Positions 1,793 through 16,378 of a stretch of DNA of 32,000 nucleotides are shown one piece after another; the first letter of the stretch is position 1, and each line of letters begins with the position of its first letter. Under the pieces are notes generated by a model. The model was not told the DNA's origin, did not search any database, and was given only the letters and a program-made list of their open reading frames with translations. The translations under genes were made by a program, and so were the position numbers. Origin of the DNA: Deinococcus radiodurans R1 = ATCC 13939 = DSM 20539 (GTDB taxonomy: Bacteria > Deinococcota > Deinococci > Deinococcales > Deinococcaceae); assembly GCF_000008565.1 (NCBI RefSeq), contig NC_001263.1, forward strand, positions 174,694 to 206,693, written 5' to 3'.

Positions 1793-3217
1793 GTGCGCCG
1801 CTTCCTGCTTCTGAGCTTCCTGCTGCTGCCCGTGGCGGCGCAGTCGTCCACACCGGCACCGCCTGCTCAGGCCACTCAGCCCCAGCCTGCACCCGCGCCG
1901 AGCGTCACCCTGGAGCGCGAGCCGCTGCCGACGGGCGCCCTGGCCCACACCCTCGCTGAGGTGCCGCGCCCTGTCCGCACCGGGCTGCTGGTGCGTGACC
2001 TGAACACCGGCAAGGTGCTCGTCGCGCTCGACCCCGACCGGCCCCTGGTTCCCGCGAGCACCATGAAACTGGTCACGGCGGCGGCGGTGCTGTATGACCG
2101 GGGTGGCGCGGGCGGCTGGTGGAGCACCGAACTGACGGTCCCGGCCCCCGATACGGGCAAAGGACACGTCAGCGCCCTGACCCTGCGCGGCAGCGGCGAC
2201 CCCACCCTGAGCGTATCCGGCACCCCCAACAGCCTGCGGGCGCTCGCCGAGCAGGCGCACACGCGCGGTATCCGGGCGGTGGACGCCGTGCGAATAGACA
2301 CCCTGCCGCTCGACGCGACGAGTTTCGAGGCCACCGAACTCGGCCTCGCCATGCCTGCCGTGCGGCTGCGCGAGTGGGAAAACCGCCCGCCGACCTCGGC
2401 GGCAGAGGCCCGGCGCCGCCTGGGGGCCACCCTGATTGCCGAACTGCGCCGCGTAGGCATCACCGTGGCGCACGAGGAAGTCACCTCGGCCCCGGCCTAC
2501 CGGCCTTATGTTCCGCCGCCCCGTCAGGACGAGAAAGGTCGGCCCCTGCCGCCGGACCTGCTGATTCCGCTGAGTCAGCGCCCCGAGCAGGGAGTAGCGA
2601 GTGTCCGCAGCGGGTCGCCGTTTCCCTTTCTGGCGTCCACCCTGCGCCCCAGCGACAACCTGCGCGCCGAGGCGCTGCTCGCCACCGTCGCGGTGCGCCC
2701 CGGCGAGACCGGCACCCTGAAAAGTGCGCTGAAGCGCGAGCAGGCCATTTTGCAGCGCCTGGGCCTGGACCTGTCGGACGTGGTGCTGGAAGACGGCAGC
2801 GGGCTCGGGCGCGGCAACCGCCTGACGCCCCGGCTGCTGACCGGACTGCTGCGGGAGCTGTACACCCTGCCTTACCCCACCGCCGCGCAGTACGGGCGCG
2901 AGCTGCCGCCAGCGCTCTACCACGCCCGCCACAACGCCTTCGCCGAGCTGCTGCCCCAGGCCGGTACCGGGGAGGACGTGCCCGACCACGACGGACGCGG
3001 GGGCACCCTGGCCCGCCGCCTCGTCGGGACGGGGCTCGACGTGCGCGCCAAGACCGGGACCCTGCCCGGCGTGAGCGCGCTGGCGGGCTACCTGACGGCG
3101 AAAAGTGGGCGGCCCCTCGCCTTCGCCGTGCTAATGAACGGACCAGAAGACAGCCCCATCTTGACGCTGCGGGCGCTGCAAGACCAGGCGGTGCGCGACA
3201 TCGCCGCTGCGTTTTGA
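1793..3217 (+). CDS. dacB: D-alanyl-D-alanine carboxypeptidase/endopeptidase, PBP4 (peptidase S13) family, secreted
   Basis: There is a signal peptide [18 protein letters not shown]. Three motifs are present: SxxK ([13 protein letters not shown]), SxN (RPSDNLRAE) and KTG ([17 protein letters not shown]). This is the PBP4-type domain order. Confidence 0.85.
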
Positions 3218-3250
3218 GATGAATTGTGATTGACGATGGAGGGGCGCAAG

Positions 3251-3270
3251 CTCGTGACTTCAGTCATGAG
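3251..3270 (+). repeat. left-end subterminal hairpin (TnpA recognition structure)
   Basis: CTCGTGAC-TTCA-GTCATGAG: an 8-bp stem with one G:T pair and a TTCA loop. It matches the right-end hairpin in design. Confidence 0.8.
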
Positions 3271-3354
3271 TGAGCCCCCCTCGCCCCGAAAGGGGCGACG
3301 TAGAGCGGAAGCTCTTGTGTTTCCGGCTCAACATATGTCATCTTCCTGTTAGAG

Positions 3355-3750
3355 ATGAAGAAGGGTCGCGGGTACGTCTACAAGCTGGAATACCACCTCA
3401 TCTGGGCGACGAAGTATCGCCATCAGGTGTTAGTGGACGAGGTTGCAGATGGACTGAAAGACATCCTGCGGGACATCGCCACCCAGAACGGACTGGAGCT
3501 TGTCGCGCTGGAGGTCATGCCTGACTACGTTCACCTCCTGCTGGGAGCCACGCCGCAGCATGTCATTCCCGACTTTGTGAAGGCGTTGAAGGGGGCATCC
3601 GCCCGTCGTATGTTCTCCGCTTTTCCGCACCTGAAGCAGCCCCACTGGGGCGGCAATCTCTGGAATCCGTCCTACTGCGTCCTGACTGTCTCGGAGCACA
3701 CCCGCGCCCAGATTCAGCAGTACATCGAGAATCAGCATGCTGCGGAATAA
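3355..3750 (+). CDS. tnpA: IS200/IS605 Y1 (HUH-type) single-strand DNA transposase TnpA
   Basis: 131 codons with [18 protein letters not shown] near the N-terminus. MPD-Y-V-H-LLL sits at the HUH position. The C-terminal catalytic helix QQYIENQ (Y123, Q127) is present. No in-frame ATG/GTG/TTG lies upstream before the TAG at 3301..3303. Confidence 0.93.
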
Positions 3751-4966
3751 GGCGTTCGTCGTCCGGCTGTATCCGAACGCGGCTCAGGCCGAGCGGATCA
3801 ACCGCACCCTGGGATGCGCCCGGTTCGTCTACAACCACTTCCTCGCCCGCCGCATCGAGAGCTACCGACAGGACGGCAAGGGGATGATCTACGCCGCCAC
3901 CGACAAGGCGCTGACCCTGCTCAAGCGGGAAGAAGGCACCGCGTGGCTGGCCGAGGTGGACAAGTTCGCGCTTCAGCAGTCCCTGCGCGACCTGGAAAGG
4001 GCGTACCAGAACTTCTTCCGCACCGCGAAGAAGTCCGGCAAGAAGGTGGGGTTCCCGAAGTTCAAGAAGAAGCGCACGGGTGAGGCGTACCGCACCCAGT
4101 TCACCAACAACAACATCGAGATTGGAGAAGGGAAGCTCAAGCTTCCCAAGCTGGGCTGGGTCAAGACCAGGGGCCAGCGGGACATGCAGGGGAAAATCCT
4201 GAACGTCACGGTGCGTCGCATCCATGAAGGCCACTACGAAGCGTCTGTCCTGTGCGAAGTCGAGATTCCCTATCTGCCTGCGGCCCCCAAGTTCGCGGCG
4301 GGCGTGGATGTCGGCATCAAGGACTTTGCCATCGTGACCGATGGCAAGGGGGAGTTTGAACATCATGCGAATCCGAAATACTACCGTTCCAGCCTGAGAA
4401 GGCTCCGTAAAGCTCAGAAAACCCTGTCCAGACGCAAGAAGGGCAGCGCACGTTACGGGAGGGCAAAAACCACGCTCGCTCGGATACACAAGCGCGTCGC
4501 CAACAAGCGGCAGGACTTCATTCATAAGCTCACCACCTCGCTGGTGCGGGAATACGAAATCACCTGCACCGAACATCTTAAGCCCGACAACATGCGGAAA
4601 AACCGCAGGCTGGCACTGAGCGTCAGTGACGCGGGTTGGGGCGAATTCATCCGGCAGTTGGAGTACAAGGCGACGTGGTACGGACGGCTGGTGTCCAAAA
4701 TCAGCCCCTACTTCCCGTCGAGCCAGATATGCCACGACTGCGGGTTCAAGAATCCCGCCGTGAAGAATCTTGCCGTCCGCGAGTGGACTTGCCCGAACTG
4801 CGGCGAGACCCATGACCGCGACGAGAACGCCGCACTGAACATCCGGCGTGAAGGACTGGTGGCCGCTGGAATGTCGGACACCCAAAACGCTCATGGAGAC
4901 TGCATCAGACCCACTTCGGTGGGCAGCGGTCTGCGAAGTGAGAATCACGCGACTTCAGTCGTGTGA
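3737..4966 (+). CDS. tnpB: TnpB (OrfB/IS1341-type) RuvC-like, RNA-guided DNA endonuclease of the IS
   Basis: 409 codons. RuvC motif I is GVDVGIKDF (D191), motif II is CTEHLKPDN (E279) and motif III is [11 protein letters not shown] (D362). A zinc finger CHDC...CPNC (C332/C335/C352/C355) lies between motifs II and III. The start overlaps the tnpA 3' end by 14 nt. The N-terminus [17 protein letters not shown] is typical of the family. Confidence 0.95.
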
Positions 4967-4990
4967 GGTTCAACTACACTGTCGGGCGAG
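4840..4990 (+). ncRNA. predicted TnpB guide RNA (omega-RNA / right-end RNA): scaffold from the tnpB 3' end plus RE, with a 16-nt guide from flanking DNA
   Basis: There is dense + strand secondary structure: CCGGCG/CGCTGG (4843..4848 / 4864..4869), and CCCAC-UUCG-GUGGG (4910..4923) extended by CAGA/UCUG (4906..4909 / 4930..4933). The 9-bp RE hairpin at 4945..4966 includes the tnpB stop codon. The element ends TTCAA(C), followed by TACACTGTCGGGCGAG (4975..4990). The 5' boundary is a guess based on the published size of ISDra2 omega-RNA. No expression data are available. Confidence 0.6.
4946..4965 (+). repeat. right-end subterminal hairpin (TnpA recognition structure, also the 3' stem of the omega-RNA scaffold)
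   Basis: CACGCGAC-TTCA-GTCGTGTG: an 8-bp stem with one G:T pair and the same TTCA loop as the left end. It extends to 9 bp with T4945:A4966. Confidence 0.8.
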
Positions 4991-5593
4991 ATGCAACAGC
5001 AGACAGGCGGGCGGAGGCGGCAGATCAGGCGCGTGGTCGTGGCGACGAGCAATGCGGGCAAGGTGCGTGAGCTGCAGGGTGCCCTCGCGCCGCTGGGCTG
5101 GCAGTGCGAGGGCCTGGGCGCGGTCACGCTGCCCGAGGAGACCGGCAGCACCTACGAGGAAAACGCGGCCCTCAAGGCCTGCGCCGCTGCGATGGCGACT
5201 GGCCTGCCCGCGCTCGCCGACGACTCGGGCATCGAAGTGCTCGCGCTCGGCGGGCAGCCGGGGGTGTACTCGGCCCGCTTCGGCAACGTGAATAGCGATG
5301 TGGAGCGCAATGTGCTGCTGCTGGAAAAGATGCGCCGGCACACCGACCGCCGCGCCAAGTTTGTGTCGGTGCTGGTCCTCGCCTATCCCGACGGCAAGCT
5401 GGAGGAGTACCGGGGCGAGGTGACGGGGCAACTGCTCGAAGGCCCGCGTGGCGAGAGCGGCTTTGGCTACGACCCCCTGTTTCTGCCCGACGGCTCCGAG
5501 CTGAGCATGGGCGAGATGACGCTGGAGCAGAAGCAGGCCATCAGCCACCGGGGCCAGGCGCTCGCGGCGCTGCTGGCCGCCCACGGTGCGTGA
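4991..5593 (+). CDS. rdgB: dITP/XTP pyrophosphatase (non-canonical purine NTP pyrophosphatase, Ham1/RdgB family)
   Basis: Motifs present: VVVATSNAGKVRELQ, EETGSTYEENAALKA, ADDSGIEVLALGGQPGVYSARF, FGYDPLF and KQAISHRGQA. Confidence 0.9.
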   Translation: MQQQTGGRRRQIRRVVVATSNAGKVRELQGALAPLGWQCEGLGAVTLPEETGSTYEENAALKACAAAMATGLPALADDSGIEVLALGGQPGVYSARFGNVNSDVERNVLLLEKMRRHTDRRAKFVSVLVLAYPDGKLEEYRGEVTGQLLEGPRGESGFGYDPLFLPDGSELSMGEMTLEQKQAISHRGQALAALLAAHGA

Positions 5594-14257: not shown

Positions 14258-14260
<3 letters not shown>

Positions 14261-14360
14261 AGCATTTGAGAGGAAAAGACACCCTCACCCCTTGCTTTGC
14301 AAGGCCCTCTCCCAGGGGGAGAGGGAGGGAGCCGCGAAGCGGCGGAAGGGTGAGGGGTCT
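14258..14360. repeat. small non-coding repeat, copy B (left TIR plus internal modules, no right TIR)
   Basis: It begins TA-GAGCATTTGAG (14258..14270). Hairpins follow: CCTTGC-TTT-GCAAGG (14290..14304), CCCTCTCCC-AGG-GGGAGAGGG (14305..14325) and GCCGC-GAA-GCGGC (14331..14343). It ends GGGTGAGGGGTCT (14348..14360). Confidence 0.8.
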
Positions 14361-16088: not shown

Positions 16089-16115
16089 CCAGGCTTGACC
16101 TCCGCAACGAGGAAC

Positions 16116-16221
16116 TAGAGCATTTGACAAAAGAATGGCCTCGCGCTGTTTGACCCTCTACCAAGGGGAGAGGGCCTGCCACAGGCAGGGGTGAGGGGTC
16201 TTTATTACGTCAAATGCTCTA
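16116..16221. mobile_element. complete MITE-like copy (copy C) of the small repeat family: 102-bp element with 11-bp perfect TIRs flanked by TA
   Basis: The structure is TA(16116..16117)-GAGCATTTGAC(16118..16128)...GTCAAATGCTC(16209..16219)-TA(16220..16221). Internal modules are TTTGACCCTCTACC-AAGG-GGAGAGGG, CCTGC-CACAG-GCAGG and GGTGAGGGGTCT. There is no coding capacity. Confidence 0.8.
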
Positions 16222-16378
16222 GGCCACCATCGGCCAACTTCTGACGAACTTCCTCGGAGACAAAGGGCCACCTGTCCAAGACTTGCTGGAACTGGCAGAC
16301 CTTCAGCGCGAATATTTGGCCGAGCGGCTTGGCGTTGAGCGCGCTGTATGCAGTTTGATTGTCTTCTGAGCCCCTGGC

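Follow-up and report, generated by a model that had tools for sequence, protein, structure and literature searches.

Introduction

Between a dacB-like gene and rdgB, chromosome 1 of Deinococcus radiodurans carries an insertion sequence (IS) with genes for a TnpA transposase and a TnpB protein, and this raises the question of whether such a copy should be regarded as a working RNA-guided nuclease with its own guide RNA or as the remains of one. The question is addressed here for a window of 32,000 nucleotides of D. radiodurans R1 (the whole stretch analyzed; contig NC_001263.1, positions 174,694 to 206,693 of the forward strand), and all positions below are counted from the first base of that window. 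A reading of the bare sequence, referred to here as the original prediction, had proposed a TnpB with a guide RNA derived from the right end of the element, of the type known from ISDra2, which would sustain a cycle of excision, cleavage, and retention with TTGAT as the transposon-associated motif (TAM).

Our analysis assigns the interval 3235-4973 (+ strand) to ISDra2*, the sole diverged ISDra2-family IS200/IS605 element, which is located between the dacB-like gene and rdgB. We put a probability of roughly 0.85 on the reading that ISDra2* has an intact TnpB and a conserved scaffold of the guide RNA (omega-RNA, or right-end element RNA [reRNA]), that it belongs to a lineage characterized by the pentamer TTGAC, and that its TnpA is most likely dead. 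Beyond this, we infer that the RNA is expressed in Deinococcus, that TTGAC is the genuine TAM, and that native TnpB* is active at present. The locus DR_0177/DR_0178 is already named and partly tested by experiment, and there is nothing new in kind here. TnpB of the ISDra2 type with its omega-RNA has been textbook knowledge since 2021, and the finding re-identifies known biology correctly. What is new is the placement of one residue, Asp56, in a recombining module of residues 40 to 120 that tracks TTGAC, and the covariation of this TAM module with the guide nucleotide of the left end is a modest lead.

Identity of the element

DR0177-DR0178 was described previously as "ISDra2*," a single "inactive degenerate" copy of ISDra2 that is present in ATCC 13939 and BAA-816 beside active ISDra2 copies (Pasternak 2010), and TnpB*/reRNA* of D. 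radiodurans was assayed more recently (Luo et al., PNAS 2025). The original suggestion of a diverged paralog, not the type copy, is thus in agreement with the literature, and the numbering offset of +1 relative to ISDra2 TnpB, on which it was based, arises because TnpB* has one extra residue after position 204. A search of the window found no further ISDra2-type copies besides 3235-4973.

The tnpB open reading frame (ORF) (3737..4966, +) runs from an ATG start to a TGA stop at 4964-4966, encodes 409 amino acids, and overlaps tnpA by 14 nt (3737-3750). Its product contains the Pfam domains HTH_OrfB_IS605, OrfB_IS605, and Cas12f1-like_TNB and aligns end to end with ISDra2 TnpB (PDB 8BF8/8EX9/8EXA/8H1J) with an E value of 4e-238 and ~85% identity. 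The RuvC triad D191/E279/D362 is aligned to D191/E278/D361 of ISDra2, and a zinc finger, CHDC-x16-CPNC, lies between E279 and D362. A RuvC nuclease with such a finger has the fold ancestral to Cas12. The length of the ORF, its overlap with the Y1 transposase gene, the triad, and the CxxC-x16-CxxC pattern had all been located correctly from the bare sequence. None of the positions that are invariant in 19 relatives is changed in TnpB*, which also retains its catalytic and zinc residues. Only three residues are private to TnpB*, namely, I51 (3887-3889), I331, and I390; at position 51 the 19 relatives have T, S, or N, and I51 neighbors Y52, an essential TAM-contact residue. The exact ISDra2 TnpB was absent from the protein-search matches, in which the closest to it was P0007/L086, at 96%.

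The ends of the element were placed by gap-free alignment with the ISDra2 oligonucleotides printed for in vitro cleavage (Pasternak et al. 2010). The left end (LE) oligonucleotide, a 59-mer, reads TTGAT followed by GCTTGAGGGGCGCACACTCGTGAC..., also given as TTGAT followed by GCTTGAGGGGCGCACACTCGTGACTTCAGTCATGAG..., and the right end (RE) oligonucleotide reads ...CACGCGACTTTAGTCGTGTGAGGTTCAA followed by flank. On this basis, the LE covers 3235..3354 (+), starting at G3235 after the pentamer TTGAC (3230..3234, +), which is the insertion target and the predicted TAM of the donor joint. The LE subterminal hairpin at 3251-3270 (+), CTCGTGAC-TTCA-GTCATGAG, is identical to that of ISDra2, and directly 5' of its foot stands G3250 (+), in the place of the TnpA "guide" nucleotide, the pairing partner of the last target base. 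The RE matches the ISDra2 oligonucleotide at 42/43 bases. Its subterminal hairpin (4945..4966, +), predicted by homology to be the TnpA DNA site and at the same time stem 4 of the omega-RNA, holds the tnpB stop and differs from that of ISDra2 by one loop base. The original prediction had let the element end with GGTTCAA at 4973/4974; the comparison places TTCAA at 4969-4973 and the last base at A4973, and the guide therefore starts at C4974. The ends are those of an IS200/IS605 element, which has imperfect subterminal hairpins in place of terminal inverted repeats and inserts 3' of a short specific motif: there is no target duplication at the RE, TTGAC lies 5' of the LE, and both hairpins are present.

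Conservation of the omega-RNA scaffold

The ISDra2 omega-RNA, as described by cryo-electron microscopy (cryo-EM), consists of stems 1 to 4 and a pseudoknot between -105..-103 and -5..-3 (PMC10097598). Counting back from -1 = 4973, the same architecture defines a 116-nt scaffold (-116 to -1) at 4858..4973 (+), with stem 1 at 4858-4865/4875-4882, the pseudoknot at 4869-4871/4969-4971, stem 2 at 4890-4893/4939-4942, stem 3a at 4897-4903/4926-4932, stem 3b at 4910-4914/4919-4923, and stem 4 at 4945-4953/4958-4966, all on the + strand. The nucleotide identities quoted for the ISDra2 scaffold are matched in the window at all but three sites or pairs. At -91 the window has C for the U of the cryo-EM paper's ISDra2; at -71/-48 it has C4903:G4926 for U:A, a compensatory change; and at -70, a site in the flexible stem 3b, it has A for G.

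For comparison, 25 related right ends were gathered from Deinococcus genomes, plasmids, and metagenomes and aligned. When the published structure is laid over 26 relatives, 97.3% of cells pair, and 19/35 pairs are changed on both sides; the pseudoknot is 97% paired, and stem 4 is 99% paired with 4 covarying pairs. These pairing and covariation values were reached by 0/500 shuffles, and slid 3' partners pair at 30 to 40%. A covariance model built from 22 relatives, with the window left out, gives one strong hit, which falls exactly on 4858-4973 (+) with 137.4 bits (E=1.6e-37), and the RNA of 132 nt folds with -52.5 kcal/mol (z = -2.6 versus shuffles). The alignment with ISDra2, the pairing and covariation, and the covariance-model hit together bear out the original assignment of a TnpB with a right-end omega-RNA of the ISDra2 type.

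The self-complementary stretches on which that assignment had been built all exist in the sequence, and some of them correspond to helices of the RNA. The 9-bp hairpin at 4945-4966 with the stop codon is stem 4, and the arms of CCCAC-UUCG-GUGGG (4910-4923) form stem 3b. The remaining two have neither covariation nor cryo-EM structure on their side and were rejected. CCGGCG/CGCTGG (4843-4848/4864-4869) is 82% paired, shows hardly any compensatory change (one A-T pair), breaks in distant members, and clashes with the covarying stem 1 and pseudoknot. The CAGA/UCUG extension of the UUCG hairpin is 59% paired and does not covary, and it lacks support because its UCU belongs to stem 3a.

The scaffold overlaps the end of tnpB, which had been expected to be poorly constrained as protein. 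Among 16 close relatives, amino acid identity is indeed 0.75 in the C-terminal tail (codons 374-409) versus 0.82 in codons 1-373. Synonymous third-position identity is 0.78 versus 0.60 for the same two parts (p=4e-6), so that silent sites are significantly more conserved in the scaffold than in the rest of tnpB, contrary to the refuting condition set out originally. In several relatives the frame or stop differs, some ORFs ending ~40 nt earlier with a different tail, and the RNA is kept.

A separate observation concerns window positions 4337-4516 (codons ~201-260), well upstream of the scaffold, where synonymous third-position identity is ~0.75 in codons 201-220 and 241-260 and ~0.55 in the neighboring ones. 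This raised silent-site identity may have its origin in an internal signal, in a recombination tract, or in chance.

The guide and its genomic setting

The predicted 16-nt guide, CTACACTGTCGGGCGA (4974..4989, +), is the flank in front of rdgB, as was proposed originally and as follows from the RE and LE alignments. G4990 lies between guide and start codon, and the rdgB ATG, at 4991, is at a distance of 17 nt from the right end. The alignment of relatives, which had been suggested as a check, combines a conserved scaffold with a sequence after TTCAA that is unrelated from locus to locus and different at every related locus. At rdgB itself, relatives have CTACACTGTCGGGCAAGATG or CTAGACTGCGCGGCAGGATG before the gene in genomes with and without the IS, which identifies the right flank as native dacB-rdgB spacer. 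No guide match beyond chance was found elsewhere in the window. A nuclease-dead regulator of the TldR type, in which the RuvC residues are lost and the guide is directed to a host promoter, was rejected here: the triad is intact, and within the window the guide matches only its own flank.

The gene order S13 peptidase (dacB-like), tnpA, tnpB, rdgB is the same in every D. radiodurans contig read (CP150840, CP094462, CP050120, and others). The IS occupies the same site and the TnpB protein is identical in all D. radiodurans assemblies sampled, and an exact empty site was found in none of the contigs examined, all of which carry the IS. A relative with 98% RdgB identity likewise has the IS at rdgB, and another, with 79% RdgB identity, has dacB next to rdgB in the same orientation with no IS between them. 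TTGAC was not demonstrable at this uninterrupted dacB-rdgB junction, because the spacer is too diverged upstream, and for that reason only the right flank is confirmed as native spacer.

In a sister lineage, on a metagenome contig whose RdgB is 93% identical to that of the window (L186:1-946), a different TnpB, 34% identical to the window TnpB and with the domains OrfB_IS605 and TNB, lies in the spacer before rdgB, and its stop precedes by 37 nt the same CTACACTGTCGGGCAAGATG found after the RE in the window. A second TnpB element, unrelated to that of the window, has thus inserted at this point or a few nucleotides away, and the sequence of its guide might be almost the same.

A sister lineage with TTGAC flanks

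The flank of the left end indicates what the copy is likely to target. TTGAT had been taken as its TAM, and this is contradicted by the sequence at 3230-3234, which reads TTGAC, the rule in a sister lineage. Among the related elements with a readable left end, TTGAC 5' of the LE together with G directly 5' of the LE hairpin foot is found at 16 insertion sites; TnpB residue 56 is readable at 14 of these and is Asp in all, with one element counted at three different sites. The combination of TTGAT, LE guide A, and Ser56 is found in ISDra2 and six other elements (7 sites). At the level of proteins, D56 is invariant in 12/12 of the TTGAC type. ISDra2 TnpB makes contact with the last TAM base through S56 and Y52 (PMC10097598), and the D56 codon of the window (3902-3904) is at the position of this contact residue. 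As TnpA of IS200/IS605 elements recognizes its cleavage and target sites through base interactions that involve the nucleotides immediately 5' of the hairpin (PMC6006769), a retargeted element should show an exchange of T:A to C:G between the last target base and the LE guide, and this is the exchange seen.

The difference between the two types is concentrated in one part of TnpB. D56, Q81, and R84 separate the TTGAC and TTGAT types perfectly, and A72 and A117 do so mostly. The window TnpB is 67% identical to ISDra2 TnpB in residues 40-120, versus 89 to 90% in residues 1-39 and 121-373, and outside residues 40-120 both types intermix, to the extent that L176 and L180 are of the TTGAC type yet 94% identical to ISDra2 in residues 121-373. 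From such sequence comparisons, residues 40-120 look like an exchangeable, recombining TAM-reading module that tracks TTGAC. The same comparisons argue that TTGAC is a property of a lineage, not a product of decay, and that Asp56 is the conserved state of this TTGAC-targeting lineage, not a private defect.

The transposase

The state of tnpA (3355..3750, +), which encodes a Y1/HUH transposase of 131 amino acids (Pfam Y1_Tnp, E=7e-41), bears directly on mobility. The window TnpA shows 100% identity to PDB 2FYX and can be aligned with ISDra2 TnpA (PDB 2XM3). Codon 58 (3526-3528, TAC) falls in PDYVHLLL, where ISDra2 TnpA reads PDHVHLLL, so that the first histidine of the HUH motif, a metal ligand, has become Tyr58. 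PDHVH is kept in every relative with a tnpA, and Y58 is unique to the window copy. The C-terminal YIENQ tyrosine is present. An autonomous element needs an intact HUH motif as well as the catalytic tyrosine, and the motif is altered here by H58Y, in agreement with the published label "inactive." Judged from its sequence, the transposase of ISDra2* is most likely dead. A cycle of excision, cleavage, and homing in cis is consequently unlikely today, because of Tyr58 and because the literature calls the copy inactive; the retention cycle that was originally ascribed to this copy also does not sit well with the absence of detectable editing by its native TnpB*/reRNA* pair in the single published assay.

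With regard to the type of change, both private and potentially damaging substitutions are single C-to-T transitions, namely, TnpA H58Y (CAC to TAC) and TnpB T51I (ACC to ATC).

Many relatives have no tnpA at all (L006, L008, L010, L012, L088, L089, L095, L096, and L180), and in most of these the LE hairpin was located 100 to 150 nt upstream of tnpB. They are tnpB-only derivatives that would need mobilization in trans. In L010, L012, and L087, tnpB is disrupted and the right end is well kept. On the metagenome contigs L180-L182, a tnpB-only element of the TTGAC type has small ORFs on one side and a Mu-like portal gene (Portal_Mu) on the other and is apparently carried in a prophage or phage genome.

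Proposed mechanism

By homology with ISDra2, the tnpB mRNA's 3' end would be processed to an RNA of ~130 to 150 nt that consists of the 116-nt scaffold and ~16 nt of flank (CUACACUGUCGGGCGA), and TnpB* would bind this RNA from the end of its own message. In the normal cycle of the family, TnpA excises the element, the ribonucleoprotein (RNP) cuts the resealed donor joint, composed of target motif and flank, and copy-back from the sister chromosome follows. Here, the RNP would recognize TTGAC and then CTACACTGTCGGGCGA, a sequence expected to exist only in the donor joint after precise excision, where TTGAC would be joined to CTACAC, i.e., ...GTGATTGAC to CTACACTGTCGG.... As long as the element is in place, the guide match follows GGTTCAA, and the element therefore does not target itself. 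The change to TTGAC is recorded in three places: the flank, the guide nucleotide used by TnpA (G for A), and the TnpB module of residues 40-120 (D56, Q81, and R84). As TnpA is probably dead, the RNP would be left with no substrate unless ISDra2 TnpA acts in trans.

Published activity and the weighing of alternatives

The assays of Luo et al. (PNAS 2025), in which reRNA* is given as 231 nt and TTGAC was predicted as an alternative TAM, place these results into functional context. For ISDra2 TnpB, reRNA* was a better partner than the reRNA of ISDra2 itself, with nearly 100% editing; TnpB* with ISDra2 reRNA gave low editing; and eTnpB*, with residues 40-100 taken from ISDra2, gave ~40% editing with reRNA* at a TTGAT site (Luo et al., PNAS 2025). 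Others have thereby shown that the scaffold at 4858-4973 functions when combined with ISDra2 TnpB and that TnpB*, after a swap of its TAM region, has a functional nuclease core.

Several points speak against an intact TnpB*, a TTGAC lineage, or the comparison on which they are built. The native pair of TnpB* and reRNA* gave no detectable editing in S. coelicolor at one TTGAT and one TTGAC site, and Asp56 was regarded as the defect behind this (Luo et al., PNAS 2025). I51, beside the essential Y52, could be a real lesion. The association of D56 with TTGAC is broken by the metagenome contig L179, whose D56 protein goes together with an LE of the TTGAT type (A guide, TTGAT flank). L176, from the same study, has an identical TnpB of the D56 type and an identical right flank with a TTGAC-type LE, and L179 may therefore be an assembly chimera or, alternatively, a recombinant that arose naturally and in which the specificities of TnpA and TnpB do not match. 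It is also conceivable that the association of D56, TTGAC, and guide G could be traced to very few evolutionary events. The DNA of the ISDra2 type copy available for comparison amounts to the published 43 nt of the RE and 39 nt of the LE, and the scaffold was mapped through the individual nucleotides named in the cryo-EM paper and through the relative L086, whose protein is 96% identical to ISDra2 TnpB; beyond the Pasternak RE oligonucleotide, the ISDra2 scaffold sequence was not found in the Karvelis 2021 supplements or in full-text literature searches. The covariance-model scan suggested at the outset hit with the model built from relatives and not with a known family: there was no Rfam match at E<=1 over 3000-5400 on both strands, and Rfam 15 appears to be without a model for the ISDra2-type scaffold.

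The alternative that survives best is that of a decaying fossil, in which the element is immobile, TnpB* is impaired, for instance through T51I beside Y52 or, per Luo et al., through D56, and the intact ORF and scaffold reflect recent immobilization. Tyr58, found in no other relative, the published description as inactive and degenerate, the lack of editing by the native pair, and Ile51 in place of T, S, or N are all in line with such a state, and the lineage-specific changes in tnpB (4 synonymous and 5 non-synonymous; n=9) are too few for a ratio of non-synonymous to synonymous rates (dN/dS) or a demonstration of purifying selection. The same protein has lost no invariant residue and has its catalytic and zinc residues intact, it is identical in all D. 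radiodurans assemblies sampled, its D56 is shared by 12/12 TTGAC-type proteins and is no private defect, and the published negative comprises one target per TAM in a heterologous host. We regard such decay as possible, with the balance tilted somewhat against it.

The distribution of D56 among relatives argues that, if TnpB* has a private lesion at all, T51I is a more plausible one than Asp56. It can be hypothesized that TnpB* is an uncrippled member of a natural TTGAC-reading lineage, in which a recombining cassette for specificity, of about residues 40-120 (D56/Q81/R84) travels with the matching LE guide, and that the failure of the native pair stems from T51I or from the single target used. 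We would hold this proposal tentatively, at a shade under even odds.

A role for the host would be another explanation, in that the element might be retained because rdgB is read through tnpB or because reRNA* and TnpB* engage in cross-talk with active ISDra2, whose TnpB would load reRNA* and whose TnpA would mobilize the copy in trans. The scan of 3150-5150, in and around the IS, found no sigma-70-like promoter, and rdgB is probably transcribed by read-through across tnpB, in which case the 3' end of the omega-RNA must be cut from that transcript. The fixation of the IS at its site in all D. radiodurans contigs, the adjacent and co-oriented dacB and rdgB of the IS-less relative, the efficient use of reRNA* by ISDra2 TnpB, and the LE hairpin shared with ISDra2 would be compatible with retention of this kind. 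This evidence is purely circumstantial, the RuvC triad is intact, which is not the case in TldR-type regulators, and ISDra2* has been replaced by a sacB/hygromycin cassette in strains that were then used in transposition assays (Pasternak et al. 2010); we consider host retention unlikely.

Finally, an autonomous ISDra2-like copy with a TTGAT TAM that runs excision and RNA-guided homing alone today, which is the original prediction taken literally, has the established family mechanism of ISDra2 and the presence of a close TnpB, scaffold, and LE and RE hairpins in its favor but is very improbable, as it is contradicted by the TTGAC flank and LE guide G, the Y-V-H in the HUH motif of TnpA, the description as inactive, the one fixed site in all strains, and the absence of editing by TnpB* with reRNA* at the TTGAT site.

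Implications

Should the proposal of a TTGAC-reading lineage be true, an editor with a TTGAC TAM would already be at hand in the form of a close relative or an I51T revertant, and a one-base retargeting would be mirrored in a DNA-guided transposase and an RNA-guided nuclease. The comparison of residues 40-120 offers a concrete and cheap route to TnpB editors with alternative TAMs, as well as a natural example of coevolution between the DNA guide of a transposase and the TAM reader of its partner nuclease.

Other features of the window

Farther along the window, just past the gene for the exonuclease VII large subunit, a 108-nt element at 16115-16222 has perfect-looking terminal inverted repeats (CTAGAGCATTTGAC...GTCAAATGCTCTAG), and a related partial copy lies 1.8 kb upstream at 14258-14325. 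The 108-nt element looks like the small non-coding mosaic repeats of D. radiodurans, which resemble miniature inverted-repeat transposable elements (MITEs).

Comparison with known systems

The closest system is ISDra2 (IS8301; Karvelis 2021, Nakagawa 2023, Sasnauskas 2023), with which the window copy shares the order LE-tnpA-tnpB-RE, the catalytic triad, the zinc finger, and stems 1 to 4 with the pseudoknot. It differs from ISDra2 in having TTGAC and LE guide G where ISDra2 has TTGAT and A, in S56D, N81Q, K84R, and the one extra residue after 204 in TnpB, in TnpA H58Y, in the 14-nt overlap of tnpA and tnpB, and in being a single fixed copy. With ISDra2*/TnpB* (Pasternak 2010; Luo 2025) the locus is the same and the object no different; Asp56 is reinterpreted, and T51I and TnpA H58Y are named as copy specific.

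IS608 of Helicobacter pylori resembles the window copy in that nucleotides directly 5' of the LE hairpin foot recognize the target through base pairing, whereas its target is the tetranucleotide TTAC and its TnpA and TnpB sequences are only distantly related. Similarly, Cas12f and other type V effectors share with TnpB the RuvC and zinc-finger (TNB) nuclease lobe and a pseudoknotted guide-RNA scaffold; unlike these effectors, TnpB has no CRISPR array, takes a guide that is fixed by the insertion site, and is a monomer of ~400 amino acids.

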